A stretch of DNA of 64,000 nucleotides from Oscillospiraceae bacterium (GTDB lineage Bacteria; Bacillota; Clostridia; Oscillospirales; Oscillospiraceae), in assembly GCA_024697625.1 (NCBI GenBank), contig JAILFJ010000181.1, forward strand, positions 22,500 through 86,499, in the 5' to 3' direction. Below the pieces are notes generated by a model. That model was not told where the DNA came from. It did not search any database and was given only the letters and a program-made list of their open reading frames with translations. Of the stretch, positions 1 through 30,091 are shown piece after piece. The position numbers and the translations under genes are program-made. Position 1 is the first letter of the stretch, and every line of letters begins with the position of its first letter.

Positions 1-1199
1 TCTGTCAAGGTGTTCCTGCCGTCCAGGATGATACCGAGGTCCTCATGTGCCGCATATACTCCGGTGTCCAGCACCGCCACGGTGATCTCCGGCCGCCCCA
101 TTGTGATGCCCCAGGCCGCATAGCTGTTCACAGTATCGTGCATCCACTGATAGTTCCAGCTTGGATCCTGTATATAGGTGTCGTTCAGGCCCAGGCTCCT
201 GACCCAGTCATACCAGTCCAGAGGCTCATCTGCTGTTGCGGCCTGGGCGGAATACACCGAGAAGCTCCCATAACCCGGCTCCAGCCCCACCAGCCAGTCC
301 GGTTCGACTGCCGGCAGCCGCAGGCTCAGATCCGCTGCCGCGGTGACGGCTTCGGCAACCGTTGCGCCCTCCGGAAGACCCAGCCGGGCGAAAAAGCCGT
401 CGAAGGAGAGGACCTGTGCTCCGAAAGCCTCCGCTGCCATCTCGGCGTATTCCGGGCTCTCGGTCACAAGCAGGACGACGCCCTCCTCAAAGGCGCAGCC
501 CGCCAGCGCATCAACGGTCCCGTGCATGGTTAGGCCCTGCTTTGCCGCAAGCTCGGCTGCCGACAGCTCATAGCCCTCCGGAAATCCCGGGAAAATCGTC
601 TCGGTCTCCTCATCTTTGGAATCGTCAGAGTCAGCGTCCTCCGCCTTCTCCTCTTCCGGATCCTCCGGCTCTCTGTCCGGGTCGCTCTCTTCGTCTTTCC
701 CTGGTTCCCGGTCTTCGTCCGATTCTCCCTCTTCGTCCGGATCCGGATCCGTCGGGTCAGTCTCTGTTCCGGGCGCACCCGGCTCTTCGCCCGCTTCTGT
801 CTCCGGTTCCGCAGTCGGTTCCGGGGTGGAAGTTTCATCTTCATCTCTGCCCTCCGGGGCTTCCGTCGGTTCTGCAAGCTCATTCTCCGTCTCCGGCAGC
901 GCCGGTTCCGTCTCCGCTCCGGTCGGATCCTGCCCTGCGGGGTCCGCTGCCGGTTCCGGATCTTCTTCCGGTACTGCTGCCGGCTCATCCGGTTCTGCCG
1001 CCGCTCTCATCCCTGCTTCGCCCGGAACGTCCGCTTCAGAGAAGTCCGCCGTCTCAACGTCGGTACTCACCGCCGCTTTCTGCGCGTCTTCCTGCCACAG
1101 GTCTTCCGCGTGCGCTGCAGGAAACAGCGATGCACACATCGCCAGCACCAGCAAAAGGCTCAGAATTTTCGTTTTTGCACGTTTCCGTCCGGTCTTCAT
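1..1199 (-). CDS. Secreted subtilisin-like serine peptidase (S8-like), paralog 0; only the N-terminal ~399 codons are in the window (gene continues past the left edge)
   Basis: Open at the window edge, so absent from the supplied ORF track. My minus-strand translation from ATG 1199 reads MKTGRKRAKTKILSLLLVLAMCASLFPAAHAED (signal peptide), then a long E/P/D/T-rich acidic stretch, FPGFPEGYELSAAELAAKQ, prodomain-like EAVTAAADLSLRLPAVEPDWLVGLEP, and the S8 Asp box ITVAVLDTGVYAAHEDL. It is collinear with the complete paralogs at 1514-16315. GAGGA lies a few nt upstream of the ATG. Confidence 0.8.
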   Translation of the reverse strand, partial: MKTGRKRAKTKILSLLLVLAMCASLFPAAHAEDLWQEDAQKAAVSTDVETADFSEADVPGEAGMRAAAEPDEPAAVPEEDPEPAADPAGQDPTGAETEPALPETENELAEPTEAPEGRDEDETSTPEPTAEPETEAGEEPGAPGTETDPTDPDPDEEGESDEDREPGKDEESDPDREPEDPEEEKAEDADSDDSKDEETETIFPGFPEGYELSAAELAAKQGLTMHGTVDALAGCAFEEGVVLLVTESPEYAEMAAEAFGAQVLSFDGFFARLGLPEGATVAEAVTAAADLSLRLPAVEPDWLVGLEPGYGSFSVYSAQAATADEPLDWYDWVRSLGLNDTYIQDPSWNYQWMHDTVNSYAAWGITMGRPEITVAVLDTGVYAAHEDLGIILDGRNTLT

Positions 1200-1318
1200 G
1201 TCATCCTCACAAATCTTCTGTAGGTATTCTTTACGGTATATGCCCTTTGTTTTCATCTGTTCTTCTCACCCAGGTTTCACACAGGTTTTTCCGCATATCT
1301 GTCCAATTGTCTCATAAT

Positions 1319-1347
1319 TATACCTGTTATCTGAGCCGCTGTCGAGG
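1319..1347 (-). promoter_or_regulatory. Candidate sigma-70-type promoter for S8 paralog 0
   Basis: On the minus strand: TCGACA (1347-1342), 17-nt spacer, TATAAT (1324-1319), about 120 nt upstream of ATG 1199. Confidence 0.35.
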
Positions 1348-1513: not shown

Positions 1514-4500
1514 CTACTTCACCTGTATTGTGATGCTTGCGCTCTTGTTGGTACCGTCCGTGGTCTTAACGGTGATCTTTGCTGTGCCTTTCTTTCCGGT
1601 GGCATTACGGTAAACTGTCAGGATTGCGTACCAGCCATATTCCTCATCAAAGCCGTAACTCATGGTACCGCCCGCCACATCGGGATTGCTGGATGTTACG
1701 GAGAAGTTGGGCAGCTCGCGGTAATAATATTTCCCGTACTTGCTGAGGCCAACGACTTCATAGCTCAGAGTTCCTTCTCCCCAGCTCTGATAGATGATGT
1801 CTTTCTTTGCTAGATAGCCGCTGTTATTAATGATCTCAACCTTAACGATCTGCGGGATCGGCCGGTAATAGACCGAGTGCATGAGATTCGTCCCATCCGT
1901 GGTCCTGGCGGTGACGCGGATATAATAGTTGTAATTATAACGCACAGCCTGCTCCAGTTTTGGCTTTACAGAGAGGTTACCGGAGTTATTGATGCTGACG
2001 TATCTATTCCGGGCAGCATAGTCAGTCAGCGAACTGTTGGCAACATAATTCCCGCTGTCATTGAGGACTCCCATATCCCAGCTCCAGGACACCTTTTTGA
2101 CGGTCGGCGTTCCGTAGGTTGTACCCAGAACCGCCGTATTGCCCTGGCTCTTTCCGTAGCCAATCGGAACATAATTATTGGCAGCTTTATCGATTCCGTC
2201 ATGCCACCGGTTGTCCAGAGTTTTGGGGATCACCGTGATGGAAGAGGCTGGTACCGTGACATTGACGTTCACACGGATGGACTTGTTGCTGCCGTCCAGG
2301 GCCTTTGCCGTCAGGGTGCACTTTCCGCCATGGCTCGCGCGGATGATGAGGGAAAGATTATCGCTCTGGTCGTATTCGTACCAAAGATCCGCCACTTCCC
2401 ATTTGTTGACCGTCCATTCAATCCCTTCTCCGGCATAGCTTCCGCCGTTTACACGGACCGCCTTCAGAGTCGCTGTATTATCCCGCCTGCTCGTTGACGG
2501 GATGTCTGCCGAATTCAGGGTCAGGGTCTGGCCGTTTTTCACCGGCTGTCCGTTCCAGTACAGATCAACGCCTGTCGCCTTCGGAGCCACTCTCACATAA
2601 TGCTGGTAACAGTAGGCCGAACCCAACTCCGGCTGAGCATAGACATAGAAGCGCGTTCCCACACTGACCCAGGATTCTACCGTAACCTTCCCGTTCATCG
2701 GGTTGATACTCACACCGTAAGGAGGTGCCGAACCTCCGGAAGAATGTACCGACCAGACCAGCTTTTTGTTCGTCGCGTTCTTCGGTGACAGTGTCGCCTT
2801 GAAAGTCGCGGAAGTTCCCGGCGCCATGATCTCCTGCCCTGTGATCATGATATCCTGCAGGCTGGCATTCACCGAGACCGTGAAGCTTAGCAGCTCCTCC
2901 GAGCCATCCGTCGGCATACCGGTGACGGTCACACTGCCCTCGGTCTTCGCGCTGAGTATAAGGCTGCTCTCGCCAGTCTGTTCATCGTACTGTGTCGTCG
3001 CATTCAGGACACTCTCATCGCTGACGTTCCAGCGGAAATCCGCATTCTCAGGGTTCAGAAGCTTGCCCTCGGCATCTTTGATCTCAAAGGGGATGCTCCA
3101 TTTGGTATTTGGCTTCAGTTCCGGAATCTCACCGTTCAGGCGCACGGTCGCGGCACGGACCCTTGTTTCGTTTCTGGCCTCGCCACCGGATTCGCCTTCC
3201 GTATTCTCAGGCTCCGTGATCCGGAGCTCCAGGCAGCTGACTTCGCCCGCCATACCGGCTTCGTTCAGCTCCATGATGCGCAGCTCCACCGTCCGGCCCG
3301 GCTCAAACTCTGAGAGCGGCAGGACGAAGCAGCCCTGCTCCGCGTCATAATGCCCCTTGTCCGACACCTCAGCCCCGTGGACGACCGCTCCGTTCAGCAC
3401 TGCAGGATTCTGTCCGTCCGTGCTGTAGAGGAAGCGGGCTGTGGAGGACGTCCCGCCTGCAGACCGCAGTGTGATATAGCCGTTAGCCGGAACCGTTCCG
3501 TCCGTGATCTCCGTGCCGTTGGCTTTGAAGACGCGGGAATAATATCCGCCCTTCGTCACCCCGAACAGCTTCGCGGCATCAATGACGCCGGCGCCCATGC
3601 CTTTTCCGCTGATTTTGTTGCAGGCTTTCATCAGGATACTGCGCATATAGGGTGGAAAGGATTGGTCGAAGACGGGATTTCCGTAATAACTGAGATAATA
3701 ACTAAGATAAAGCGCTGCGACACCGGAGACCACCGGGGTCGCCATGGAGGTGCCGTTCCAGCATACATACGTACTCCCTGTCGTTGTTGACCAGGTCGTT
3801 GACCAGATCGCCGAGCCGGGGGCTGACACATCGCACCAGTCGCCGTAGTTGGAATACGGTGCGCGGGCGCCGCTGATGTCGGTTGCAGCCACTGCGATTA
3901 CTTCGTCGAAGTAAGCCGGAGCGGCCTTGATATTCGATGCATCATTCCCCATGGATACAATGACTGTCGCACCGGCAACAGTGGCCCTGCGGATAGCACC
4001 ATGTATCTGGCTTGGATAGTTTTTGCTGTTGATGCTCATGTTGATGATCTTCGCACCGTGCTTCCAGGCATAATCAATCCCCTGGGAAATCGCATACTCA
4101 TTGCCACCTCCATTTTCATCCATGACTCGCACCGCCAGGATACTGACACCCGGGGCGATGCCGGCGCCGCCCTTGCCGTTACCCATGGTGGCGGCGATGA
4201 TTCCGGCCACATGGGTACCGTGTCCGTTCTCGTCCATCGGGTCGTTGTCGCCGTCTACATAGTCATCGCCCTTGATTACCTTTCCGGCCAGATCAGGATG
4301 GTTATAATCGACGCCGGTGTCCACAACGGCCACGATGACATTGGACGAGCCTGTCGTGACACCCCATGCGCCATAGCTGTGGACGATATCATGCTGATAC
4401 TGATAGCTGCCTGCAGGATTTCTCAGCAGCGAATCCGGATTAGCCGTGTTGTCGATCCAGTCCTGCCACATGAGCCCGCTGTAAGCGGCGGCCTGCATCT

Positions 4501-5713
4501 GTGTGTCAAAGCTCACACCCTCGGAGAGCATGACAGGATCCACGCTGACAATCCAGTTCGGCTCCACCGCCGGGAGAGGCATTTCCATATCCGCCGCACA
4601 CTCCACGGCTTCGGCTACGGTAGCATCCGTCAGCAGGAGCTTACCTATATAACCGGAGAACTCCGCGAGCTCCGCGTTATACGCCTCGGCGACCATCCGG
4701 GCGTACTCCTCAGACTCTGCGCTGAACAGCACTTCGCCCTCGACGTACTCTCCCGCACCGCTCTGTACCGCCGCGAGGATTCCCTCGTCGGTCAGGACGC
4801 GCTTCTCCTCCAGCTGTTCTTCGCTGAGCTCGTAGTCCTCCGGCAGGCCTTTGAACCCGTAGGGCAGGGCCTCCTTCATGCTGACTGTCACGGTGACCGG
4901 CTCAGAGCCCGCCGCCACTTCCAGTGGGACGTTTTCCTTTGCGCGGAAGCCATCCGCTGTCGCAGACCAGACGTACACACCCGGTGTGAGCAGATAGACC
5001 GCACGGAATACGGTCTCCTCTGCGCCGTCCGGAGCTTCTTCGGCATCAGATGCTGTCGCGTCTGTCTCGGCTCCCTCCGCCATTGCGGCCATCGCTGCCG
5101 TCTCGTCCTCGGCCGGATCTTCTGCCGTTTCCGTAGCAGTCGCCTCTGCAAGCTCCGCTTCCTCGGCAGGGGCCACAGGTGTCTCGCCGGCATACACCGT
5201 AAGGCGGATCTCCTGCGCAGAGACGAATGTCACACAGACAGACTCTGCCTGGGCATCGTCCTCATCCTCGGATTCTTCTTCGCTCTCTTCCGCAACAGCG
5301 GCCTCTTCGTCCGCGGGGGGTTCCGCAGGGTCGCCCTCACCGTCTGTCGGAGTTTCTGCGGGTTCTTCCGCCGGTTCCTCAGGAATCTCTGGCGCCTCTT
5401 CCGCGGGCTCTTCAGGCACTTCTCCGAGCTCCTCTGCGGGCTCCGCCGTCTCTTCCTGCGGTGCTTCGGTCAGCGTCGCATCCCCGGTCGCATCTTCCGC
5501 TGACGGGTCCTCTTCCGGGCTCTCCCCTATCTCGGGGGATTCGCTCTCTTCGCCGAGTTCCTCCCCGAACAGGCTGTCCGCCGCAACGGTCTCACCGAGT
5601 GCTGCCTCTTCCCCTTCCGCCAGCACGGCCGGGAACATCGAGACCAGCATCGTGAAAACCAGCAGCAGGGAAAGCAGCTTTTTCATGCTGTTGTTCTTCA
5701 TTCCTGTCTTCAT
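1514..5713 (-). CDS. Secreted subtilisin-like serine peptidase (S8) with acidic spacer and bacterial Ig-like (Big_2-type) repeats, paralog 1
   Basis: 1399-aa ORF. Signal peptide MKKLLSLLLVFTMLVSMFPAVLA, then an E/P-rich acidic spacer. S8 triad motifs: VAVVDTGVDYNHPDL (Asp), HGTHVAGIIAA (His), NGTSMATPVVSGVAAL (Ser). A prodomain-like segment ends LPLPAVEPNWIVSVDP. Also a CHB_HEX_C-like motif FLYSTDGQNPAV and repeated Big_2-like units ending ...ITVKTTDGTNKSASITIQVK. Confidence 0.93.
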   Translation of the reverse strand: MKTGMKNNSMKKLLSLLLVFTMLVSMFPAVLAEGEEAALGETVAADSLFGEELGEESESPEIGESPEEDPSAEDATGDATLTEAPQEETAEPAEELGEVPEEPAEEAPEIPEEPAEEPAETPTDGEGDPAEPPADEEAAVAEESEEESEDEDDAQAESVCVTFVSAQEIRLTVYAGETPVAPAEEAELAEATATETAEDPAEDETAAMAAMAEGAETDATASDAEEAPDGAEETVFRAVYLLTPGVYVWSATADGFRAKENVPLEVAAGSEPVTVTVSMKEALPYGFKGLPEDYELSEEQLEEKRVLTDEGILAAVQSGAGEYVEGEVLFSAESEEYARMVAEAYNAELAEFSGYIGKLLLTDATVAEAVECAADMEMPLPAVEPNWIVSVDPVMLSEGVSFDTQMQAAAYSGLMWQDWIDNTANPDSLLRNPAGSYQYQHDIVHSYGAWGVTTGSSNVIVAVVDTGVDYNHPDLAGKVIKGDDYVDGDNDPMDENGHGTHVAGIIAATMGNGKGGAGIAPGVSILAVRVMDENGGGNEYAISQGIDYAWKHGAKIINMSINSKNYPSQIHGAIRRATVAGATVIVSMGNDASNIKAAPAYFDEVIAVAATDISGARAPYSNYGDWCDVSAPGSAIWSTTWSTTTGSTYVCWNGTSMATPVVSGVAALYLSYYLSYYGNPVFDQSFPPYMRSILMKACNKISGKGMGAGVIDAAKLFGVTKGGYYSRVFKANGTEITDGTVPANGYITLRSAGGTSSTARFLYSTDGQNPAVLNGAVVHGAEVSDKGHYDAEQGCFVLPLSEFEPGRTVELRIMELNEAGMAGEVSCLELRITEPENTEGESGGEARNETRVRAATVRLNGEIPELKPNTKWSIPFEIKDAEGKLLNPENADFRWNVSDESVLNATTQYDEQTGESSLILSAKTEGSVTVTGMPTDGSEELLSFTVSVNASLQDIMITGQEIMAPGTSATFKATLSPKNATNKKLVWSVHSSGGSAPPYGVSINPMNGKVTVESWVSVGTRFYVYAQPELGSAYCYQHYVRVAPKATGVDLYWNGQPVKNGQTLTLNSADIPSTSRRDNTATLKAVRVNGGSYAGEGIEWTVNKWEVADLWYEYDQSDNLSLIIRASHGGKCTLTAKALDGSNKSIRVNVNVTVPASSITVIPKTLDNRWHDGIDKAANNYVPIGYGKSQGNTAVLGTTYGTPTVKKVSWSWDMGVLNDSGNYVANSSLTDYAARNRYVSINNSGNLSVKPKLEQAVRYNYNYYIRVTARTTDGTNLMHSVYYRPIPQIVKVEIINNSGYLAKKDIIYQSWGEGTLSYEVVGLSKYGKYYYRELPNFSVTSSNPDVAGGTMSYGFDEEYGWYAILTVYRNATGKKGTAKITVKTTDGTNKSASITIQVK

Positions 5714-5766
5714 TTCCTTTCTGTGTTGTTATCCGTTTCCCGTAAATATCTGGACCGTCTAGATAC

Positions 5767-5795
5767 AGAATACCATATTCAGGGAGTGGTTGCAA
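5767..5795 (-). promoter_or_regulatory. Candidate promoter of S8 paralog 1 (conserved cassette)
   Basis: Minus strand: TTGCAA (5795-5790), 17 nt, TATTCT (5772-5767) preceded by TGg. The same -35/-10 and flanking block (acagaataccatat on the plus strand) recurs upstream of paralog 2. Confidence 0.45.
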
Positions 5796-5912: not shown

Positions 5913-6790
5913 TCACCTGGTGAAGAGCTGATAGCTGCTGTACTCCGGATAGCGCTTGACAGTCTGATAGCCTGTCTGGATATTCCCGTATTTATCATAG
6001 TAGCTGATCGGAGTGTTGTCCCCTACCGCGCTGATGTACCGGTACAGCTCTTCCAGCGTCACAATCCCGTCCTTATTGCCGCCGTACTGCATATCCGCCG
6101 GAAAATTTCCGCTCGTACCGACGCCGTTCGTCAGCCATTTGGTGAAATTGTTATAGGAATCCGAAGCGCTGCTTCCTTCCCTGCCGAAACTCAGCTGCTG
6201 AAGCGCAGAAGCTGTCAGGACATAGAACTTGTTGGCGACACGGAGCTCTCCGGTTTGGGCAACGACCTCCTTGGTTTCCTCATCCGCACTCGCGAAGGCA
6301 TCGATCAGAGCCTGGGTAAACTGATCGTCCGCCATCCCCTCGGTTTCGGCCCCGTTGTTCGCGCTGTTGGCATAAACCGCCGCACCTGAGCCGCAGGACT
6401 CCACAATGACGATCACCTTGCCGGGCACCGCCTTCAGCCAGGATGCCAGATCCCGGAAGTAAATAAACTCTCCGTTCGCTGTCGCCAAAGCCCCTGCATA
6501 GGCGGAACCCGCTCCGTTGGAGACGTCGCCGTGGGTTGCGATGAAGAACAGCGAGACGTCCTGTTCCGTGGCATCGGCAAAGGTCGCTGCAATGGCATTT
6601 CTGATCTGGCTGGGACTGTAGTCCTTCCCCCCGTAGATGTTTCCGTCGTATGGGTTGCCGTCCGGGCCTTTAACACTTCTCAGCATCCCTGTCATCAGCA
6701 GTACGTCGCCCCAGTTGCGATTGCACACATCGCCGTCGCTGAAGTTCACTTCGCCAAACAGCAGCGCACGGTATTTTGTCGAAGCTGACC
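5913..6790 (-). other. Clan-CD (caspase/legumain/metacaspase-like) peptidase-like domain plus one EF-hand-like loop at the C-terminus of paralog 2
   Basis: The translation is KYRALLFGEVNF...DVSLFFIATHGD (beta-strand + His-Gly, DNA ~6521-6545) ...PGKVIVIVESCGSGAAV (hydrophobic strand + E-S-C-x-S-G, DNA ~6380-6405). This is the His/Cys dyad layout of legumain (EACESG) and metacaspases (DSCHSG). The tail has GGNKDGIVTLEELYRYI, an EF-hand/dockerin-like Ca loop (DNA ~6040-6085). Confidence 0.65.
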
Positions 6791-9700
6791 TGACATAGAG
6801 GGTAGCACTGTTGCTGTAAACCGCGACCCCGTCATTTCCGGTCACCCGACAGCGGAACTCGTAATTGTTGTATGCGGACGTGGCCGTAAAGCTCAGGGTG
6901 CTCGTCTTATTTCCGTTCAGGGAACTGTTCTGCCAGGTCTCACTCCCGGGTGCTTTCATCTCCCACTGGTAGCTCAGGCTGTGTCCCGTTGCCGTCACCC
7001 GGAAGGTCGCCGTCGCATTCGGGTCCACAGTAAGATTCGCCGGATGTGTCGTAATGTCGGCATCGTGGAAGTTTGCGCTCAGTACAAGACGGATGGTTCC
7101 GGTGGTGTCAGAGCTGTAATATCTCACCTCAAAGAAGTAAGTCGTTCCGGCAGCAAAGTCATAGGTAATGCTGAAGTTGTTGCTTTCCCCGCCATCGTCG
7201 TCGTAGGCAAGCTGATTTTCCGAGGCATCGTAGAGATAGCCGTAGGTGTCGTCGGACCCGGTGGATGTCAGAGTGTAGCTGCCCGACAGCGTGGGTACAA
7301 ATCGGAACCTGACTCTCTCCCCGCCGGCACTGATCACCGCCGTAGTTGTGCCGGGAGAAATAGATGCTATTACTCTTAGCCGAGCTGTGTCACTGTAGAC
7401 TGGGACCCCGTCATTTCCGGTCACCCGACAGCGAAACTCGTAATTGTTGTATGCGGACGTGGCCGTAAAGCTCAGGGTGCTCGTCTTATTTCCGTTCAGG
7501 GAACTGTTCTGCCAGGTCTCACTCCCGGGTGCTTTCATCTCCCACTGGTAGCTCAGGCTGTGTCCCGTCGCCGTCACCCGGAAGGTCGCCGTCGCATTCG
7601 GGGCCACAGTAAGATTCGCCGGATGTGTCGTAATGTCGGCATCGTGGAAGTTTGCGCTCAGTACAAGACAGATGGTTCCGGTGGTGTCAGAGCTGTAATA
7701 TCTCACCTCAAAGAAGTAAGTCGTTCCGGCAGCAAAGTCATAGGTAATGCTGAAGTTGTTGCTTTCCCCGCCGTCATCGTCGTAGTCAAGCTGATTGTCC
7801 GAGGCATCATAGAGATATCCGCAGGTGTCGTCGGACCCGGTGGATGTCAGGGTGTAGCTGCCCGACAGGGTGGGTACAAATCGGAACCGAACGCTCTCCC
7901 CGCCGGTGCTGATCACCGCCGTAGTTGTGCCGGGTACAATCGTACGAACCTGTTTCGCATTTACGGTCAGAGTCGCTGCGTTGCTTATGGCACTGTTCGA
8001 ATCTGCCCCTCGCACCAGACAGCGGAACTGCCAGCTGTTATATCGGGTATCGCCGGGAACGCGCAGCGTGCTTGTATCATGTCCCTCAAAACCGGCCGAT
8101 ACCCAGACGCTCTCGCCTCTCCTCTTCATCTGCCACTCATAATATACACTCGTGCCGGATGCCGTAATGGAAAAACTTGCCGCCGTCCCCTCTGCCACGG
8201 TCACGTTCGCAGGGTGTCTTGTAATTGAGACGGCAGTGGGGGCACTGTCATTGATGACCTTCACGCTGATCTTTGCGCTCTTGTTGCTGCCATCGGTGGT
8301 CTTGACGGTGATGGTCGCGCTTCCTGCCTTGCCGCTGCTGTTTCGGACAACATCCAGCATTCCGTAGTATCCGTAGCTGTCGTCATATCCTATGAAGACA
8401 ATACCGCTCGCCACGTTCGGGTCGCTGGAGCTTACGGAGAAGTTGGGCAGACTGCGGAAATAGGTTCTGCCGCTCTTTCCATAGCCGAGGATTTCAAATC
8501 TCTGTCTTCCCTCGCCCCAGCTTGTGCGGAGCTCGGTCTTCTTCACCTCATGGCCGTAGCCGTCCTCGATCATGACCTTGTTGATCTGCGGGATCGGCCG
8601 GTAGTAGACCTCATCACGCAGGCCTGTCCCATCAGTGGTTGAGGCATACACACGGATGGCATAGTCATAGCCCAGCGCGAGCTCTGCATTCGCCTTCAGA
8701 GTGAGGTTGCCGGAGGCGTTGATACTGACATATCTCTTTGAGGCAGCATTGTGTGTCAGCGACCAGTCGGTATAATACTCTCCGTATTCGTTGAAGCCGC
8801 CCAGGTCAACACCCCATGCCACCTTCCTGACACTCGGGGTACCGTAGGTCGCGCCAAGAACCGCTGTGTTCCCCTGGCTCTTGCCGTAAGCTATGGGAAT
8901 ATAGTGAAGGCCGTTGTCAAGTCCGTAAAAGAAATCTTTGTCCTGTGACTTGGAAATAACTGTAATGGAGGATGCCGGAACCGTGACCCTGATCTTCACA
9001 TTGGCGGTCTTGTTCGACCCGTCCATGGCCTTTGCCGTCAGGGTGGCCGTGCCTGCGTTGTGGGCATTCACCCGAATTCCGCCCTGACCGTTGTCCTCAT
9101 CGATGCTGACGATGGCGGCATTGCTGGTTGTCCATTGGATTCCGGCCCAACGGTCATAGATGCTCCCGGTTTTCCCGGCCACACGCCAGGCATCCAGCCA
9201 CGCGCTTCTGTCGTTGGCGCTTGTTCCGGGTAGGTTGGCGCTCTGCAGGGTGATCGTGGCGCTGTTTTTCAGTTCCGCAGCGTTGTTCAGCTTCAGGCCA
9301 ACGGCCCCGGCTTTGTTGTCAACCGTGACATCAATCCTGTTACTCCAGACATTGCCTCCGTCGGTCGAATTTGCCAGAACAGAGAATGTTGCCCCCAGCG
9401 GTGCTGTACGATCTACCGTGACTTTTCCCGATGTCGGGTTGCAGGTCACCCAAACGGAAACGGGATCGACAGCCCAGGTCACTTTTTTATTCTTTGTGTT
9501 CTTCGGAAGAACCAGGCTGGCCTTATAGGTAGCGCTGGTTCCGGGGGCGACGATGCTCTGGCCGGTGATGGTGATGCTGCTGACAAGGTTGGATACCGAC
9601 ACACTGACAGAGATCGGCTCGACGGACTCGTCCTCGACAGTGCCGCTCAGCCTGGCAGTTCCGACCTTCCTCGCATAAACCAGGACCTCATACTCCCCGG

Positions 9701-12023: not shown

Positions 12024-12097
12024 CTCCGTTATTTCGTCCTTTCTGTATTGCTTCTCAGCTTTTGTGATTCTGAGAAAAATTCACACTGTTTGAGGAC

Positions 12098-12126
12098 AGA
12101 ATACCATATCCCCAAGGGCATTGCAA
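12098..12126 (-). promoter_or_regulatory. Candidate promoter of S8 paralog 2 (conserved cassette)
   Basis: Minus strand: TTGCAA (12126-12121), 17 nt, TATTCT (12103-12098), with the same flanking block as upstream of paralog 1. Confidence 0.45.
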
Positions 12127-12218: not shown

Positions 12219-12310
12219 GGAATTCTGTATTGAGCTGTGCCAACCGCCTCGCCTTCCATTACCTGGACATTGGATGGCTGCGCCGTGATCACAGTGGCCG
12301 GGACCGGCAG

Positions 12311-21571: not shown

Positions 21572-24500
21572 TTACTTCAGTGTGATCTTCACGCTCAGTC
21601 TCGCGTTCGGTGTGTCGGTGATATTACCGCCGAGGAACACCTGGAGCTGTACGTTCGCGCTCTTCATCTTCGTGACGTCAATTGTCCTGTCCTTCACAAA
21701 GCCGATGGCAAACTCGCCGTTTCCAAGGTGCACCGGCTGCGCAAAGCATCCGCTTTTATCCACCAGAACCACCCGCGCCTCGCCGATGTCGTACAGCGTC
21801 GGGTCATTCACGCTCAGAACCACGCTCTGCCGGTCATAGAGGTCATTCTTCGACAGGGTGATCGCCTTCGTGCTCTGGGCGATCTTCGCGGTGCCCATCT
21901 TTACAGTGAGGGCCTTGTAGACAGTGCTCTGGGCTCCCGTCACATCCTTCGGGACCGCTGCATAGTACTTCAGCTTCGGGTTCAGGGCTTCCTTCGGCGT
22001 CACCCGGTAGGCTGCGCCGTCAAAGCCCACTGTGAATTTATCCGTGATGTCTTTGTATGCGCTGTCATAGATGTGGAGATCGCCCTGCTCCAGGTCACGC
22101 TCGTACCAGTTCTTCACCGTCGGCGTAACCGTCACCGAGGTCCCCTGCCGCAGCACGTCAATGGTGCCGACGGTCTTATAGCTTACGTTGATGGTCACCT
22201 TTGCGGAGTTCTTCACCGTGATCTTTACGGGTTTGATCTCCGCAGCCGCTGTTTCGATCACCGCCGTGTACGCATCGCCCTTGTCAAAGACGTCCTTCAG
22301 GCTCTGCTTCAGCGCCGGGTCCCGCTTCTCCCGGAGGGTGATGACATCCCGGGTAATTTCAATATTGAAGAGATCTGTGACATCCAGGTCCTTCACACCC
22401 TGCTTCCTGTTGTTGCACAGGATATGAACATCGTAGTCCGTCACGGCGCCGGCATTGCAGTTTTTGCCGGTCAGGGTGATTGTCACCGGGCTGTTTGTCA
22501 TCTTCAGGTCGATCGCGCCTGCGGCTTTTGCCGTGATGCCGGTTTTTGCCGCCGCTGCCTGTACCTTGACCCTCAGCGTCGCGACCGGCTGTCCGTCCGC
22601 TTTCACGGTCACGGTGGCATTGCCCGCGGTGGCTTTTCCCTTCTCCACCGTGATCACGCCGGTCTCATCGTCGTAATCTGCAATCAGCCCGTTGTTTCCC
22701 ACAGCCTCGATACGGTGGGTCATGCCGGCCAGCGGCGTTACCGTCACGGCCGAGAAAGCCTTATCATTCCCGTTGCCGGAGTACAGATTCACAGAGGTAG
22801 GCTTCAGCGTCACTTTCGGCGCGTTCCAGGTGCTGCTGACCGTGAGGTTCAGCTTTGCCGTCACCGCCCAGTTCTCCAGGTCGCAGATCAGGCTGAACTT
22901 CGCGGAGCCGTTTTTGGTGTTTGCCGGGTTCAGCTTCACCGTCATCGGCAGCTCTTTGCTCAGCTCCGCCACCGTGTTTTTATAATTCCCGTTCTCCGGC
23001 CGGAATCCGGTCACATTGGCCCCGGTGACCGCGACCGGCACAACCTCGTCCGGGGTGAAGCGGTTCAGCTTCACCGCAGGAGCTGACAGCTTCGGAAGCG
23101 TCTTCTTCACCGTGACCGTGAGCGGCAGAGGATCCAGCTCGCGTCCGTTCTCCGTTCCGTCGTCCACCGTCACCAGGATGCTGGCCTTGTAACTGCCCTT
23201 TGTCGCCTTCACGGCGAGCGGGCTCAGATCCTTCGGTACAATCTGGACATAGCGGTCGTCCACCTGTTCCAGCTCGAAGAAGTCCGTGATCTTATTCTTG
23301 TCTGCGGCCTCCCAGGTCACCTTTTTCAGCACCGCCGAGACCGCCGGATCTGCAGGGCTATTGGTGTCTGCATCGGCGTCGGTCCCTGCCTCCCCGATGC
23401 TGGCAGCGCCGATCCGGTTCTGCTCGATGGCAAGGACGATGCCCACACGGGTGTAGTCCGTGCGGTAGAGCTCGACCGTGACCTTGTCCTCCGTGAGCGA
23501 CGCCTTCACCTCGCTGAGCTCTGTGATACTCTCCTGTATGTCCACGCGGCAGCGGGCCGTATAGACTGCATACCCCAGGTCCAGCGTCGCAACCGCATAG
23601 TCCGTCCCGACGCTCTTTGCCATCACGGCGCCGGTATTCCGATCCACCGCGATGATGTCTTCCCTGCCGCTCTCGGTGGTCCAGGTCAGGTACTTTTTCG
23701 TATAGTCGTTCAGACCCTCTGTTACATTCAGGCTGCTGTCTGTTCCGCCTTTCTGGATCAGCAGATACTCCTTGTTCAGCTTCAGGCCGCTGCTGTCCCC
23801 GGCACCAAACTGTGCCTTAAAGGCCTGCGTAAGGGCTTCGTTCCCTTCTGCGATCCGGATCCTGTTCCACTCGGCGGGTGTTCCGGCATAATTCACGGTC
23901 TTCAGTTCTTCACAGCCTGTGAAGCAGGCCTCCTCCACTGCGGTCAGGCTCTTCGGGACCGTGACCTCTGCGAGGCCTGTGCAGCCCATGAATCCGCCCT
24001 CCGGCAGTGCTGCCAGGCCCTCCGGCAGAACCATGCTCTCCAGCCCGCTGCCGTAGAAGACATATCTGCGCAGTTCCGTCAGTGTGGACGGAAGGTCGAT
24101 GCCGCGCAGACTGACGCAGTCCGTGAAGGCGTCCGCGTGGATGCTGACGAGCCCCTCCGGCAGGGAGACCTCTGTGAGGTTCGGCAGGTACGAGAAGGCA
24201 TAGCCGCCGATCACGGTGATCCCCGCTTCCACGACGACTTTGGTGATCTCGGCGCTCCGGGCTGCCCAGGGGAGCATCATGCCGTTCTCATAGTAATAAT
24301 CCCACATCGCCCCGGTGCCCGACAGGGTCAGAACCCCGTTGCTGACGGCCCAGCGAATATCGTTGCCGACATAACCCTCCGGGCGCTCGTACTGAACCCG
24401 GAAGCTGACCGCTCCTTCATTGCCCAGCTCGTCGGTGACCGTGCAGGTATAGACGCGGAAGGTATCCACCGGCTCCGTCACAAGTGAAGGACTGTTGTTC

Positions 24501-27500
24501 TCATAGTTTATGATCTGTGTCGATCCATCCTCTGTCCAGTCCGTCGCGCTGCTCCAGGCATAGCGGATGGCGCCGCCTCCCTGCGCGGGGACAGTCTCCA
24601 CCTCCAGCGTGACCGTCGTGCCGCAGGGGACAGCAATGGCAGTCTCTTTCCCGTCCTTAGGCTGAACTGCGAGGCCGTATTCACAGTAGAGCTTTGCTCC
24701 TGTCAGTGACTCATTTCCCTCTGCGATCCGGTCTTCCTTCCAGTCTGAAGAGAATCCGTTCAGCTCGATCCTCTGCAGGTTATCGCACTGGTCAAAGGCC
24801 CACTTGCCGACCCTGAGCCCCGCGGCAGAAGCCGAAACCGCCAGCGTCTCCAGCGCATTCATGCCGGCAAAGGCGTTCTGTCCGACTGCCGTCACCCCGG
24901 GATCCAGGGTTACGGTTTTGACCGTATCCTCATAATCTCCCCAGGGCGCGTCCGTCGTCCAGTTGACGCTTCCCCCGTCCGCCGGATAACCGACCTCGGT
25001 ATAGTCCCAGATGTCGCCTTCTCCGCTGATGGTCAGGGTGTCGCCGCTGACCGCCCACGTCAGTCTGTCGCCGCAGGCGTCCAGATCGAAGACCGCAGCA
25101 CTCAGTTCATAGCTGCCCTCTCCGGTCGCCTGGCCGGTGCGCTCTATCTCAAGCGGGAGGGTTTCTCCTGCTTTCATGGAATAGCGGTAAATCATTGTCT
25201 CGCCGTCCCATAGCACCTGGGAATCCGGCACGCGGCTGTTCGTCGCGCTCAGATGAATGCCCGGTCTTGCAGCGCTGTCGCTGAGCTTGCGGAGAGTTAT
25301 CACATAGAGGCCTTCCTCCTCTGCGACAAGTCGGAAACTGCTCTTCGGCTGTGCGGAGGACAGATCCAGCGTGAGCGTCTCTCCCGCCTTCAGAGCGGGA
25401 TTCCAGGTATAGATGTAGACACATTCCTTGTTGTCCGAATCCGTATGGCTTCTCTCGTAGTTTCTGAGATCGATCCCCGTGAAGTAGGTATCCGGATCCG
25501 CATCCGCAACATGGCCTTTCCCGATATGGTTTACATACAGCCGCCCGGTACCGGCGTAGCTGCCTGTCACCGTCACGGTTGCCATGGCGCCGTTGCCGTT
25601 GTGCAGGGCGAGCGTGCTGTTGTTGACCAGGGTACCGGCCACGGTGATGTCCTCCTGCAGGAGCAGACTACCGTTGAGCGTCAGGGTCTTTCCCGCCGGT
25701 ACCGTGACGCTGTTGTTGGGTGCCGGGAACCAGACCATCAGGTTCTCCGGGATGACGACGTCCTCCGTGAACTCGAAGGGCTCGTTCAGGCCAAAGCGGA
25801 TGCTGGTGATCGACGTATAGTTCTGTGCGCAGAATTTCTGAAGCTGCTTCAGGTTCCTGAATTCATTCGGTGCGTGGTATTCCGCGATCTGCTCTGCGGT
25901 GATCTGCGTCTCGGCAGACCAGTCGGACCACAGAGATTTGTCCACCGTGGCGGTGTCGTCACTCAGCAGCTTCACACGCCACTGATAGTATCCCGGACCC
26001 TGCTGCCGGACTCTCGCCATGAAGGACACCGCCGGGCTCTCATCCCCTGGCCCCATGGTACGGCGGATCAGCGTGGGATACCGCATGCCCTCGCCGGTCT
26101 GAGGATCTGAGAGACTCGCCCGGTACCGGTATTCCATCATGAAGCCCGTGTAATGATCCAGGTCTGCGGGCATGGTCCAGGTTGCCATACCGTCGGTGTC
26201 AATCCCGATATTCGTCACTGTTGCCATGCGGACCGCGGCCTTCTCATAGTGCCACGTCTCCGACTTCACCGGGTCGCTGTCGGCATATTTGTCCGGGTCC
26301 TTGGAGACGGCGGTCACCGTAAAGTAATAGTCGCCGCTCTCAAACTCATCGCTGGTCACAAAGACGTGGTTCCCGTCCCGGCCAGCACCGGGGACAGCGG
26401 TAAAATCGGTCCGTACCATCGTATCTGTACCATTTACGGTTCGATAGATCCTGTATTCATAGAAGCGCGTCGGATTCTCAGCCGCCTGAGCAAAGCTCAT
26501 GAACCCAATGACGTCGTGCCCTTCCTCGAACCTGTGCCAGGCAAGGTCCGTCGGCGGACTCAGCTTCAGCAGGTCGCCCAGGCAGCGGAGCTTCGCGCTC
26601 CGGAGGGGCTCATTACCGTCCGCGATGCTGACCGAAGACCAGTCGGTCTGCCGGCCGGCATACTTTACAAGCTCCAACGTGCCGCAGCCGCTGAAGCAGG
26701 CCAGCGGTACCGTATTCAGTGTCTTTGGCAGCGTGATCTCTTTCAGACCGGCACATCCCATAAAGGCCGCCGCACCGATTTCAGTCAAGCCTTCCGGCAG
26801 TACAACAGTCTCCAGTCCGCTGCCGTAAAAGGCGTAACTGCCGATCTTCCGCAGAGACGCCGGGAACTCGATGCTCTTCAGGCTCACGCTGTCAGAGAAG
26901 GCGTCTCTTCCGATCCGGGTAAGCGTTGTGGGCAGGGTCACCCTGGTCAGGTTCGGCATCTGGGTAAAGGCGTCGCCGCCGACGGCTGTGATCCCCTCTC
27001 CGACAATCACCTCGGTGATGCTGCCGTTCAGCCCCGTCCAGGGCGTCATAAAGCCGTCCTCGTAATAGTAGTCCCACATCTCCCCTGTGCCGGAGAGCGT
27101 CAGGACGCTTCCGCTGACACTCCAGCGGATGCTGTCTCCGGCAAAGCCGTCCTGCCGCCCATAGTCCAGCGTGAACGTCACCTGTGCCGAGTTGCCGTTC
27201 TGGTCCGACACGACACAGACGTACTGCAGCTGATCGGTGACAGGATCTGTCGTCAGACGGTTGGTGTTGCCGCTGGTGCTTCCATGTCCGACGAGGGTCT
27301 GAGCGACCCTGCCGTCCTCTGTCCTGCGGTTGACCGCATACCAGTCATAAGTCAGCGTATCGCCTTCCTTTGCCGGCGTCGCCCGGACGGTCAGGGTTGC
27401 GGTTGTCCCGCGTGCCACCGTCAGCCCGGTCTCGCCGACAGGCTCGAGCTTCAGCAACGGACGGTTGTCTATGTCACCATCAGTGCAGTGGATCAGAGCG

Positions 27501-30091
27501 GTTTTCAGGCAGTCATTCAGGTCGCCGATGCGGATCGCGCTCCACTGCGCCTTGGTGCCGGCATAGTTGACTGTTTTCAGGCTGTTGGCCGTCTCAAATG
27601 CCCCGTACTGTATGTCCGTCAGACTGACCGGGATGTCCAGCTCCTCCACGGCCGTGCCATTGAAGGCGGCCTGTCCGATGCTCTCCAGCTGATTTGGAAG
27701 CCTGACCTCCGTCAGAGCCCCGCAGCCTGAGAAGGTTGCGTATTCCAGCATCGCAATGCTGTCCGGAAGGCGGATCGAGGTCAGGCCGGTCGCCCGGAAG
27801 GCGTTGAGACCGAGGCTCTTCACGCTGTCGGGCAGGCTGACCTCCTTCAGGGCGCTCATCCCCATGAAGGCTGCCTCGCCGAGAGACGTGATGCCGTCGT
27901 CCACCGTCAGCTTTGACGCGGTCCCGGCATACTGTGTCCAAGGCGCATCCGTGCCCGTCTCCGTCCAGCTGCGGGGCCACATCTCACCCGTACCGGAAAT
28001 CGTCAGCTCGGCAGTCGCCGTGTCATAACTCCAGACAGCGGTCTCGCCGCAGGCGTCGGTCTCAAAGCTCTTCACGCTGATCCGGTATTTCCCGGTTCCG
28101 CTGCTCATGCGCTCGAGCGTGACCCGGTATTCCTGTCCCGCCGTCAGTGTAGACCGGACGCTGACTGTGCCGGTGGAGCTTGCCCACGTCGCCACCGTGC
28201 TGCCGTCCGCCGTCGTCAGCGTCACTCTGACCGGCGGGTATACCACATAGGGTGAGGCAGCTGTCACATTGCTGCCGCTGTTACTGATATCCTCAGCGGT
28301 GATTTCATATATCCTCGTCGCCAGGGGTTTAAAGATCAGTGTCCTGCTCGCCGAGGCCGTATTCTCACTGCCCAGCGTGATCTCGACGCCCTTTCCGTCC
28401 TCCAGCTCCGGGTCTGCCGGGGTCGGATCTGCATACGGCGTATAGTCCTTATTCGACAGCGTCAGAATGTCGCTGCCGTAGAGGTTTTTCGCCTCATCAT
28501 CATAGACGTAGGTCACCTGACTGGCAAAGCTGCCCGAGCCGCAGTTATACGTGTATCCGTTTGCGACTCCGCCGCCGGCACATCCCTTCATGAACAGCCA
28601 GTCCGGTGCGCCGATCGATCCCACGTCACAGTTGGTCACGTCGACAAGATAGTTTTTCCCATCCTCCATGCTGACGATGTTCCACATGTGATTTCCGGCC
28701 CCGGTACCGCCGCTCATCACGCCGCTGACCGAATAGACGCCGACCGCTCCCTGGAAACTCGTCAGCTCGCAGAGATACTGGAAGGCTTTGGAATAGCCTT
28801 CGCACACGACGTCCGTATCGATATCGCCGTCAAACACCCAGATCAGCTGCCACGGGTTTCCGTATGGCACAGTCTGATCCTGGGCTGCCTTGTCGTTGTA
28901 TGTGACATGGTCGCAGATCCAGGTTTTATAGGCGCTCAGCTTGTCAAAGTCACTCTTGGGTGCCGCACTGGTCACAACAGCGTTGGCGTTCTGTACCGCT
29001 GTCTTTACCGTTGTGCCGTATTTCGGGTCGACACCGGTCGGCTTTGTGACGGTATGTTCATCTCCGTATTCGTCTTCATACCGGTATGTGTATACGCTGC
29101 TTCCGTCCCAGTATTCCTGCACAACCGACATCCAGACGCAGAAGCCGTCTCCCTCTACCTTGATTGTATTTCCGGAGCCGCTCATGCTGTCATAGGGCTG
29201 ATACATGGTCCCGTCGGTCTTGTCATACCAGTACAGTGAGTAGCAGCAGTCCGCCAGCAGCGCGCCCAGCACTGCTCTGAAGCTGAAATCAAAGAAGCTG
29301 TCCACCATAGCAAAGCCGTCGTCAAAATTGGTTACACCCAGCTCATCAAAGGTATATGTTTTCTTCAGTCCCAGCTCCTCAAAGGGGATCACAAAGGCCG
29401 TGCTGGCAAGATCGCCGGATGCAACCTGTTGGATTCTCTTCCACAGCGCATCATAGATCTTTTTATCCAGTCCGGTCAGCAGTTCGCCGCGGTCGACCCT
29501 GTAGTTCTGCGGTGTGACCGCACCGGGGCGCAGCGAATCCAGCGCTGCCTGGGCATAGGCATCCAGCAGTGCTGCGTTATCCGTGCCGTCGTCGACCGTA
29601 ACCGTACAGATCCTTCCCGACATTTCGGCATAACCTTCATCCTCGTCTCCGAGGTCTGCCGTCTCTGTCGGCGCCTCATCTTCGGCTTCTTCAGGATCAT
29701 CGGCTTTCGGACCATCGTCCTTCGGCTCTTCCGAATCTGCAGGAGCTTCCGTCGGCTCTTCGGGCACGGCTTCCGAAGGTGCATCCTCCGGGGGCGCAGC
29801 TTCCGGGGTCTCTTCCTCTTCAACAGGCTCTTCCCCCGCAGCCTCCGGCGCCGCTTCCGCCCCGGGAAGCATCTCTTCTTCCCCGGAGAGCGCGGGATCC
29901 TCTGCCTCTCCCTGAGTCAGGAGATCTTCTTCCGCCTGGCTTCCCTCTTCCACAGAATAACCATCCGCTTCGCCGGCCTCTTCTGCCAGACCGGTACCGT
30001 CCCCACCCTCGGCAAAGGCCCAGGTCGGGAGCATCGAGGCGCACATTGCGATGCACAGCAGCACCGCCAGCAGCTTTCTGTAGTGTTTCAT
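21572..30091 (-). CDS. Giant secreted protein: transglutaminase-like core + PPC-like + four BspA-type LRR blocks + Ig/FN3-like array (TG-2)
   Basis: The ORF is open to 30178. I prefer ATG 30091 (MKHYRKLLAVLLCIAMCASMLPTWAFA), which has AAGGAGGA upstream. Acidic spacer follows. Core motif: YGNPWQLIWVFDGDIDTDVVCEGYSKAFQYLC...GNHMWNIVSMEDGKNYLVDVTNCD. LRR_5-like units (e.g. ITAVGGDAFTQMPNLTRVTLPTTLTRIGRDAFSDSVSLKSIEFPASLRKIGSYAFYGSGLETVVLPEGLTEIG) are each preceded by ...LTLSGTGEMWDYY. The C-terminal ~900 aa is collinear with TG-1 and ends ...NARLSVKITLK. Confidence 0.9.
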   Translation of the reverse strand: MKHYRKLLAVLLCIAMCASMLPTWAFAEGGDGTGLAEEAGEADGYSVEEGSQAEEDLLTQGEAEDPALSGEEEMLPGAEAAPEAAGEEPVEEEETPEAAPPEDAPSEAVPEEPTEAPADSEEPKDDGPKADDPEEAEDEAPTETADLGDEDEGYAEMSGRICTVTVDDGTDNAALLDAYAQAALDSLRPGAVTPQNYRVDRGELLTGLDKKIYDALWKRIQQVASGDLASTAFVIPFEELGLKKTYTFDELGVTNFDDGFAMVDSFFDFSFRAVLGALLADCCYSLYWYDKTDGTMYQPYDSMSGSGNTIKVEGDGFCVWMSVVQEYWDGSSVYTYRYEDEYGDEHTVTKPTGVDPKYGTTVKTAVQNANAVVTSAAPKSDFDKLSAYKTWICDHVTYNDKAAQDQTVPYGNPWQLIWVFDGDIDTDVVCEGYSKAFQYLCELTSFQGAVGVYSVSGVMSGGTGAGNHMWNIVSMEDGKNYLVDVTNCDVGSIGAPDWLFMKGCAGGGVANGYTYNCGSGSFASQVTYVYDDEAKNLYGSDILTLSNKDYTPYADPTPADPELEDGKGVEITLGSENTASASRTLIFKPLATRIYEITAEDISNSGSNVTAASPYVVYPPVRVTLTTADGSTVATWASSTGTVSVRSTLTAGQEYRVTLERMSSGTGKYRISVKSFETDACGETAVWSYDTATAELTISGTGEMWPRSWTETGTDAPWTQYAGTASKLTVDDGITSLGEAAFMGMSALKEVSLPDSVKSLGLNAFRATGLTSIRLPDSIAMLEYATFSGCGALTEVRLPNQLESIGQAAFNGTAVEELDIPVSLTDIQYGAFETANSLKTVNYAGTKAQWSAIRIGDLNDCLKTALIHCTDGDIDNRPLLKLEPVGETGLTVARGTTATLTVRATPAKEGDTLTYDWYAVNRRTEDGRVAQTLVGHGSTSGNTNRLTTDPVTDQLQYVCVVSDQNGNSAQVTFTLDYGRQDGFAGDSIRWSVSGSVLTLSGTGEMWDYYYEDGFMTPWTGLNGSITEVIVGEGITAVGGDAFTQMPNLTRVTLPTTLTRIGRDAFSDSVSLKSIEFPASLRKIGSYAFYGSGLETVVLPEGLTEIGAAAFMGCAGLKEITLPKTLNTVPLACFSGCGTLELVKYAGRQTDWSSVSIADGNEPLRSAKLRCLGDLLKLSPPTDLAWHRFEEGHDVIGFMSFAQAAENPTRFYEYRIYRTVNGTDTMVRTDFTAVPGAGRDGNHVFVTSDEFESGDYYFTVTAVSKDPDKYADSDPVKSETWHYEKAAVRMATVTNIGIDTDGMATWTMPADLDHYTGFMMEYRYRASLSDPQTGEGMRYPTLIRRTMGPGDESPAVSFMARVRQQGPGYYQWRVKLLSDDTATVDKSLWSDWSAETQITAEQIAEYHAPNEFRNLKQLQKFCAQNYTSITSIRFGLNEPFEFTEDVVIPENLMVWFPAPNNSVTVPAGKTLTLNGSLLLQEDITVAGTLVNNSTLALHNGNGAMATVTVTGSYAGTGRLYVNHIGKGHVADADPDTYFTGIDLRNYERSHTDSDNKECVYIYTWNPALKAGETLTLDLSSAQPKSSFRLVAEEEGLYVITLRKLSDSAARPGIHLSATNSRVPDSQVLWDGETMIYRYSMKAGETLPLEIERTGQATGEGSYELSAAVFDLDACGDRLTWAVSGDTLTISGEGDIWDYTEVGYPADGGSVNWTTDAPWGDYEDTVKTVTLDPGVTAVGQNAFAGMNALETLAVSASAAGLRVGKWAFDQCDNLQRIELNGFSSDWKEDRIAEGNESLTGAKLYCEYGLAVQPKDGKETAIAVPCGTTVTLEVETVPAQGGGAIRYAWSSATDWTEDGSTQIINYENNSPSLVTEPVDTFRVYTCTVTDELGNEGAVSFRVQYERPEGYVGNDIRWAVSNGVLTLSGTGAMWDYYYENGMMLPWAARSAEITKVVVEAGITVIGGYAFSYLPNLTEVSLPEGLVSIHADAFTDCVSLRGIDLPSTLTELRRYVFYGSGLESMVLPEGLAALPEGGFMGCTGLAEVTVPKSLTAVEEACFTGCEELKTVNYAGTPAEWNRIRIAEGNEALTQAFKAQFGAGDSSGLKLNKEYLLIQKGGTDSSLNVTEGLNDYTKKYLTWTTESGREDIIAVDRNTGAVMAKSVGTDYAVATLDLGYAVYTARCRVDIQESITELSEVKASLTEDKVTVELYRTDYTRVGIVLAIEQNRIGAASIGEAGTDADADTNSPADPAVSAVLKKVTWEAADKNKITDFFELEQVDDRYVQIVPKDLSPLAVKATKGSYKASILVTVDDGTENGRELDPLPLTVTVKKTLPKLSAPAVKLNRFTPDEVVPVAVTGANVTGFRPENGNYKNTVAELSKELPMTVKLNPANTKNGSAKFSLICDLENWAVTAKLNLTVSSTWNAPKVTLKPTSVNLYSGNGNDKAFSAVTVTPLAGMTHRIEAVGNNGLIADYDDETGVITVEKGKATAGNATVTVKADGQPVATLRVKVQAAAAKTGITAKAAGAIDLKMTNSPVTITLTGKNCNAGAVTDYDVHILCNNRKQGVKDLDVTDLFNIEITRDVITLREKRDPALKQSLKDVFDKGDAYTAVIETAAAEIKPVKITVKNSAKVTINVSYKTVGTIDVLRQGTSVTVTPTVKNWYERDLEQGDLHIYDSAYKDITDKFTVGFDGAAYRVTPKEALNPKLKYYAAVPKDVTGAQSTVYKALTVKMGTAKIAQSTKAITLSKNDLYDRQSVVLSVNDPTLYDIGEARVVLVDKSGCFAQPVHLGNGEFAIGFVKDRTIDVTKMKSANVQLQVFLGGNITDTPNARLSVKITLK
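28620..28870 (-). other. Transglutaminase-like core of TG-2 (candidate catalytic Cys, His, Asp)
   Basis: Cys codon at 28802-28804 (VVCEGYSKAF), His codon at 28688-28690 (NHMWNIV), Asp in LVDVTNCD (~28622-28648). Confidence 0.7.

Follow-up and report, generated by a model that had tools for sequence, protein, structure and literature searches.

A propeptide-like lipoprotein encoded beside large S8 subtilases, and a lineage-specific array of secreted giant proteins in an Oscillospiraceae bacterium

We analyzed a stretch of 64,000 nucleotides (64 kb) of DNA from an uncultured Oscillospiraceae bacterium (assembly GCA_024697625.1, contig JAILFJ010000181.1, positions 22,500 to 86,499 of the forward strand; host ~59% GC), here called the window. 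Its first 30 kb are filled by an array of genes for very large secreted proteins, S8 subtilases and transglutaminase (TGase)-like proteins, with a small lipoprotein gene between the two kinds. A first reading of the sequence, here called the original prediction, saw in this array a dedicated extracellular proteolysis and adhesion toolkit. The explanation that we consider probable, if far from certain, is that the array is a rapidly evolving island of tandem duplicates belonging to two independent families exported by the general secretory (Sec) pathway, and that the lipoprotein is a partner of the subtilases, acting as their trans-acting propeptide. The array genes are named g0 to g7 from left to right, all coordinates are window positions, and residue numbers are counted from the starts of the open reading frames (ORFs; for g3 from 16390 and for g6 from 30178). 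Lengths are in amino acids (aa).

1-1199, minus strand: g0, the N-terminal 399 aa of a fourth S8 paralogue; the remainder lies past the left edge
1514-5713, minus strand: g1, a 1399-aa secreted thermitase-like S8 subtilase with a Big_2/Rib-like tail
5913-12023, minus strand: g2, a 2036-aa S8 subtilase with Ig_3, I-set and PA14 modules and a caspase-like C-terminal domain
12311-16315, minus strand (ORF to 16390, 1359 aa): g3, an S8 subtilase with a Big_2 tail
16478-16870, minus strand: g4, a 130-aa lipoprotein with a propeptide-like domain
16941-21455, minus strand: g5, a secreted protein of 1504 aa whose N-terminal domain is TGase-like and whose C-terminal region is Ig-like and paralogous to g6
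21572-30091, minus strand (ORF to 30178, 2868 aa): g6, a giant g5 paralogue with large BspA-type LRR_5 insertions
34289-38356, minus strand: g7, a 1355-aa secreted LRR_5/Ig-like protein without a catalytic domain

The lipoprotein g4 has a lipobox (LTGC, Cys21), a propeptide-like domain of βαββαβ topology at residues ~45-115 and a tail containing DDPV. It aligns to the region immediately upstream of the catalytic domain in g0-g3 and is ~30% identical to the neighboring prodomain. When the g4 family was compared with S8 pro-regions by hhalign, the two aligned over 73 columns with a probability of 90% and an E-value of 1.5e-6. The AlphaFold2 (AF2) model of g4 has a βαββαβ core with a predicted local distance difference test score (pLDDT) of 97-98, and its top Foldseek match is 3wqb_B, the chaperone ORF2 of the protease ASP. 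Next came PC1/3 prodomain chains, two of which belong to furin complexes, and prosubtilisin and fervidolysin; for ORF2, the PC1/3 chains and prosubtilisin the E-values were 0.01-0.14. By topology and by hhalign g4 has the fold of an S8 prodomain. The curated models for such domains do not recognize it: I9 (PF05922) and the fervidolysin prodomain (PF22148) were absent among 61 family members at E<=1, ORF_2_N was weakly matched by 11 of the 61, and no Pfam model covers the family. A PDB sequence search with the family profile returned lipoprotein signal peptides only.

An exhaustive HMMER search recovered 445 representative clusters of the g4 family at E<=1e-3, with a median length of 120 aa. 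Among the best 150 clusters nearly all were 100-130 aa long, and a lipobox-like motif was found in 110. The clusters share 40-60% identity across families of Clostridia. The original prediction had described g4 as an orphan prodomain-like lipoprotein; its homology to S8 prodomains was borne out, whereas it is no orphan, given at least 445 clusters and a conserved partnership with large S8 genes. These numbers also bear on the idea that g4 is a decayed and functionless remnant of the 5' end of a disrupted S8 gene. Homology to the S8 pro-region would fit such an origin, and gene decay does occur in the array (the relic at 12243-12310 described below). However, g4 carries its own lipoprotein signal, unlike the signal peptidase I (SPase-I) leaders of the subtilases, the 445 clusters are of similar small size and well conserved, and the position and orientation beside intact S8 genes are kept. 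An identity of only ~30% to the neighboring prodomain also argues against a recent fragment. We consider this origin highly improbable and reject it on the conservation of the family.

When one genome from each GTDB species was scanned with the closer g4-family alignment, 28 loci were obtained, from Lachnospiraceae, Oscillospiraceae, Faecousia, Butyrivibrio, Pseudoflavonifractor and Erysipelotrichaceae. At 23 of them a gene for an S8 protein of 950-1800 aa adjoins the g4 homologue on the same strand within ~110 bp, on either side or on both. The g4-family hidden Markov model (HMM) matches the N-terminal regions of many of these partner subtilases, for instance at 1e-12 in locus L011. TGase-like neighbors were essentially absent from the same 28 loci, all of them more distant from the window. 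The conserved unit is therefore the pair of g4 and S8 gene, not the whole array, and the S8 family (g0-g3) and the TGase-like family (g5, g6) are neighbors in this lineage only. The original prediction had proposed a comparison of synteny in related genomes. In the relative L001, which is ~95% identical, the same order of g6, g5, g4, S8 and S8 was found, but this order did not recur beyond the strain or species level and was absent in L002-L029.

Two of the 28 loci differ in other ways. In L012 (2-6743) the g4-family gene is followed by a gene for a 2106-aa Lipase_3 and Flg_new_2 protein instead of an S8 gene; the partner of the g4 family may not always be a subtilase. In L024 (1544-5975) a g4-like gene and an S8 gene lie on a contig assigned to a Muribaculaceae (Bacteroidota) metagenome-assembled genome, which reflects either horizontal transfer or a binning error.

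The ends of the g4-family proteins suggest how they might act. Forty-eight percent of the members end exactly 6 residues past a conserved Asn and 73% end 6-9 residues past it, the last residue often being Tyr or Phe. The prosegment of subtilisin BPN' ends 6 residues past the Asp of its VEED motif, at the P1 Tyr, and the conserved Asn may be the counterpart of this Asp. The subtilases g0-g3 appear to be built from a cleavable signal peptide, an acidic linker, a prodomain of their own, an Asp/His/Ser catalytic domain and a long Ig-like tail. We propose that g4 would be held by its lipid at the outer side of the membrane, close to the S8 zymogens as they emerge and fold there. Its contact with the catalytic domain would be that of a cleaved propeptide, the β-sheet packing against the surface of the enzyme and the C-terminal tail lying in the substrate cleft. 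The lipoprotein would serve as a temporary inhibitor, and possibly as a folding aid, shielding the cell's own envelope until the proteases move away.

The closest known arrangement is that of ASP and ORF2 from Aeromonas sobria (3wqb). The gene for ORF2 adjoins asp; the protein is required for the maturation of ASP and temporarily inhibits it, placing its C-terminal tail in the active site (PMC5638518). As with ORF2, the best structural match of g4, a small separate protein is encoded directly beside an S8 gene: in the window, in L001 and at the 23 loci the two genes adjoin and share a strand. The pair departs from the defining feature of ASP-ORF2, a protease without a propeptide, because g0-g3 and many of the partner subtilases carry an N-terminal region homologous to g4. 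ASP is also kexin-like and from a Gram-negative bacterium, whereas the subtilases described here are thermitase-like proteins of 1000-2000 aa with Ig-like tails. Unlike ORF2, g4 is a lipoprotein of a Gram-positive lineage, and the sequence similarity between the two is marginal (best Pfam E-value 0.005).

Subtilisin propeptides and I9-type inhibitors (BPN', 1spb_P) share with g4 the βαββαβ fold, homology to the prodomain of the neighboring protease and, in the modal C-terminus of the g4 family, the end of a cleaved propeptide; g4 differs from them in having no Pfam I9 match. Free-standing I9-type inhibitors include PBI2 of yeast and POIA1 of Pleurotus. To our knowledge lipid anchoring is not a feature of any known I9 inhibitor. 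In Streptococcus pyogenes the SpeB inhibitor Spi is a propeptide homologue encoded next to its protease, in a cysteine protease system. Large surface S8 proteases with a small adjacent lipoprotein for maturation or stability are also known. The lactococcal cell-envelope proteinase PrtP has the lipoprotein maturase PrtM, a PrsA-type isomerase, and PrtP of the Treponema dentilisin complex is found with the lipoprotein PrcB. Neither PrtM nor PrcB, which is unrelated, is a propeptide homologue, unlike g4. A weak match to the NCBIfam model denti_PrtP was seen in the array subtilases, under cut-off. Literature searches found no described propeptide-like lipoprotein and no description of these giant subtilases in Clostridia. 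The components of the array are new members of known enzyme kinds, and the g4-S8 pair is a new variation on an arrangement already known, a propeptide-like partner with a gene of its own.

The likeness to ORF2 and PrtM could also mean that g4 is an obligatory external foldase of the adjacent subtilase, not a protective inhibitor, in which case the S8 proteins would be inactive without it. This agrees with ORF2 being the top structural match and being required by ASP, with the weak ORF_2_N matches, with the conserved S8 adjacency and, by analogy, with PrtM. ASP has no propeptide, whereas these subtilases retain a homologous prodomain, and a single g4 would have to serve four paralogues. The modal C-terminus of the family, moreover, mimics a cleaved propeptide, the inhibitory form in subtilisins. 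We hold an obligatory foldase to be unlikely; the roles of foldase and inhibitor are not mutually exclusive.

Several observations weigh against g4 being a trans-acting propeptide that inhibits its S8 neighbors. The Foldseek E-values of g4 are weak (0.01-0.2), and generic βαββαβ folds (among them HMA, RRM and UreE) were matched as well. Comparison of the g4 family with the BPN' prosegment by hhalign gave nothing significant. The equivalence of the conserved Asn with the VEED Asp rests on motif resemblance, and g4 itself is a long-tailed variant that does not end at the modal position. Five of the 28 loci lack an adjacent S8 gene, one of these being at a contig edge and one having the Lipase_3 giant as neighbor. 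The subtilases retain their own prodomains, leaving the need for a second one unexplained, and the window holds four S8 genes but one g4. Finally, g4 may be transcribed with g5 rather than with g3, since a hairpin with a T-run follows g4 and the gap between g5 and g4 is only 70 bp.

With these points in mind, we put forward only tentatively, at somewhat less than even chances, that the g4 family is a widespread and undescribed class of membrane-anchored trans-acting subtilase propeptides, product-mimicking "guards" of the adjacent giant S8 proteins in gut and rumen Clostridia. If this is true, the class would be a Gram-positive, lipid-tethered counterpart of ASP-ORF2 and SpeB-Spi.

The catalytic residues of the subtilases were examined next to those of known enzymes. 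Pfam Peptidase_S8 matched g1, g2 and g3 at E-values of 1e-52 to 1e-54, and the Asp/His/Ser triads are intact in all three (g1, D465/H498/S656; g2, D339/H372/S525; g3, D357/H390/S544). The catalytic region of g3 aligned to Ak.1 protease (1dbi) at 2e-59 through Asp, His, the oxyanion Asn (GN) and Ser (GTSMA). With the motifs D[ST]G, HG[TS] and G[TS]S and the oxyanion Asn, g1, g2 and g3 belong to the thermitase-like S8A subtilases. The likeness to thermitase and Ak.1 (1thm, 1dbi) covers the catalytic domain, at 1e-55 to 1e-59 through the same four residues. Those mature enzymes are ~280 aa long, whereas g1-g3 also have acidic linkers, and their Ig-like, PA14 and caspase-like modules come to 700-1500 aa. 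The fourth paralogue, g0, is 44-48% identical to g1-g3 over the pro-region and has a signal peptide, an acidic linker and a prodomain-like region. It breaks off at VAVLDTG (D378), leaving the Asp as the sole triad residue inside the window. Prodomain-like regions were also found in g1 and in g3 (residues ~205-325), the pro-region of g1 weakly matching PF22148. The four S8 paralogues of the original prediction thus hold, the fourth by its Asp only.

The same prediction had joined these catalytic domains to Big_2/Ig, PPC and BspA-type leucine-rich repeat (LRR) binding modules. Matches to Big_2, Ig_3, I-set and PA14 in Pfam were near or barely above the cut-offs, and the BspA-type repeats are clear (see below), but the PPC domain (PF04151) was not found in the array proteins even at E<=1. 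A reading of the S8 matches as part of a defense system or as mycosins of a type VII secretion system (T7SS) was rejected; the NCBIfam scores were all far under cut-offs and the proteins carry Sec signal peptides.

The second family consists of g5 and g6, which are paralogous at both ends. Their TGase-like domains are the following.

19896-21038, minus strand: TGase-like domain of g5, residues 140-520, with C393, H431 and D447
28424-29596, minus strand: TGase-like domain of g6, with C459, H497 and D513

Across 49 sequences of the family the Cys, His and Asp never vary. The family profile matched PDB 9crn (TglA of S. pyogenes) with an E-value of 8e-8 and all three catalytic residues aligned. 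The predicted structure of the g5 domain (pLDDT 90.6) gave fold matches to 9crn (E-value 1e-7), 4xz7, TgpA, LapG and vasohibins. The three residues of g5 and g6 are at the core positions of the TGase (papain-like) fold, as had been predicted for these two giants, and the catalytic residues of both families could be aligned to the active sites of known enzymes, 1dbi for S8 and 9crn for the TGase-like domain. Neither g5 nor g6 has a catalytic match in Pfam: for Transglut_core (PF01841) g6 scored 14.1 bits against a cut-off of 23, and g5 gave no match. The streptococcal TGase-fold proteins, TglA (9crn) and 4xz7, are the best profile and fold matches, with only 15-17% identity and low global TM-scores of 0.26-0.30. 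The entry 4xz7, deposited as "a TGase", is probably the S. suis SsTGase of Yu et al. (2015). Literature searches found no paper on S. pyogenes TglA. Unlike these two proteins, g5 and g6 are 1500-2900 aa long and carry LRR_5 and Ig-like modules.

Residues ~150-515 of g5 match the N-termini of more than 2000 proteins with LRR_5, choline-binding, SLH, Flg_new or Big_2 modules. The N-terminal TGase-like domain of ~370 aa is accordingly found with highly varied wall-binding and adhesin partners, and among the matches listed no precomputed Pfam entry covers it. LRR_5 was found in four stretches of g6 (E-value 1.9e-85) and in g7 (1.2e-13), which makes both carriers of BspA-type repeats. In g5 and g6 a TglA-type Cys/His/Asp domain is joined to LRR and Ig-like binding modules, and the two probably cut or cross-link proteins on other surfaces.

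A third catalytic type, a clan-CD His/Cys domain, had been predicted for the array and is probably represented by the C-terminus of g2.

5916-6806, minus strand: C14 (clan CD) caspase-like domain of g2, residues ~1740-2036

The majority of 63 homologues of this region carry a precomputed PF00656 match, and a His-Gly (FIATHGD) and a Cys (ESCGSG) are invariant in 29 aligned homologues. The family profile aligned the HG and sCxSG motifs to metacaspase-4 at a weak E-value of 0.024. For g2 itself the matches are sub-threshold: NCBIfam caspase at 9e-6 is under the cut-off, CHAT was at 0.15, and the Pfam threshold was not reached. A PDB search with the g2 C-terminus alone gave spurious antibody matches only. 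The caspase-like module was also found fused to a TGase-like domain (P0090, with PF00656) and to LRR_5 and Big_2 proteins; among such surface proteins it seems to move as a C-terminal unit, which might serve in self-processing.

The gene g3 may once have carried such a module as well. Downstream of its stop codon lies a short remnant.

12243-12310, minus strand: relic coding sequence of 68 bp, downstream of the g3 stop

In L001 the gene in the g3 position reads through (GCG AGA, compared to GAG TAA in the window) into an Ig-like and caspase-like module. Since the stretch after the stop is homologous to in-frame coding sequence of L001, we conclude from this comparison that g3 of the window has lost a C-terminal Ig-like and caspase-like module that was kept in L001. 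Within g6, an 880-bp LRR-coding block (26567-27447) is missing in L001, a change of repeat number in a surface protein. Because relatives of ~95% identity differ in both the g6 block and the g3 module, the sequences indicate that reshuffling of the array proceeds over short times.

The layout of the array was as predicted. Seven successive minus-strand genes occupy 1-30178 in the ORF list with gaps of 70-314 bp, and the array runs past the left edge, the frame of g0 being open at position 1. For g3 and g6 the originally proposed starts, 16315 and 30091, directly precede signal peptides and are more plausible than the ORF starts. Paralogy among the array genes is far beyond chance. All seven large proteins (g0-g3 and g5-g7) have a single N-terminal hydrophobic segment with an AxA site, followed by a linker of 100-170 aa with 30-41% Asp+Glu. 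Export of the seven is plausible because of these signal peptides. No C-terminal membrane segment, no LPXTG near the C-terminus and no known wall anchor or retention motif was found in them.

Hints on transcription were obtained from consensus scans and folding only.

1317-1345, minus strand: promoter-like site TCGACA-17-TATAAT (11 of 12), upstream of g0
5765-5778, minus strand: ATATGGTATTCTGT, copy 1, 52 bp upstream of g1
12096-12109, minus strand: ATATGGTATTCTGT, copy 2, identical over its 14 nucleotides, 73 bp upstream of g2
30143-30171, minus strand: promoter-like site TTGTAA-17-TATAAT, upstream of g6

A strong hairpin past the g1 stop precedes the promoter-like site of g0, and a classic terminator of hairpin and T-run at ~30214-30260 lies ahead of that of g6. 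Hairpins were also found after g6 and g4. None of 100 shuffles gave as many matches as the 14-nucleotide pair of ATATGGTATTCTGT, which is probably a duplicated promoter element. Promoter-like sites, the repeated motif and the hairpins between genes point to several transcription units in the array.

These results can be set against the toolkit of the original prediction, in which all seven or eight genes form one co-regulated system for extracellular proteolysis and adhesion. In it, serine, caspase-like and TGase-like enzymes would be directed at one shared target, for example surface proteins of a host or competitor. The clustering with short gaps, the leader and acidic-linker design common to all seven large proteins, the same order in L001, and the exchange of caspase-like, LRR_5 and Ig modules among families (P0090 joining TGase-like and PF00656 domains) would all agree with this. 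The order is, however, kept only at ~95% identity, and the TGase-like neighbor is missing at nearly all g4/S8 loci. The three nearest TGase-like/LRR giants elsewhere (P0003, P0004 and P0006) have housekeeping neighbors and no S8 or lipoprotein genes. The genes are set apart by individual promoter-like elements and hairpins. Nearly all genes of the window are on the minus strand, with negative GC skew almost throughout, and co-directionality is therefore uninformative on an operon. The eighth gene, g7, does not adjoin the array: Suf-like, ABC ATPase, thymidine kinase and uridine kinase genes, all of housekeeping type, lie in between. Its predicted relationship stands for the leader, acidic linker, LRR_5 and Ig-like regions, the only parts that it has in common with the array proteins, and not for a catalytic domain. 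The toolkit reading finds partial support, and a single dedicated system seems to us distinctly unlikely. We continue to favor an island of tandem duplicates from two independent families.

Further along the window, at 42664-50281, two large hybrid histidine kinases (Cache, HisKA, HATPase, receiver and Hpt) are encoded together with a response regulator with an HD-GYP-type domain.

The large proteases secreted by Clostridia of gut and rumen have hardly been characterized, and they probably influence protein degradation, contacts with host surfaces and competition in these communities. Two of the families described here have no Pfam model and are gaps in annotation: the lipoproteins, in at least 445 clusters, and the N-terminal TGase-like domain, present in more than 2000 proteins. 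The 30-kb array is a lineage-specific pile-up of duplicates and should not be chased as a system. The combination of a propeptide-like lipoprotein and a large S8 protease is conserved across many genera, with Butyrivibrio sp. MC2021 and AE3009 and Pseudoflavonifractor sp. MSJ-30 as cultured carriers, and it offers a testable idea of how these bacteria may handle dangerous proteases at their own surface.

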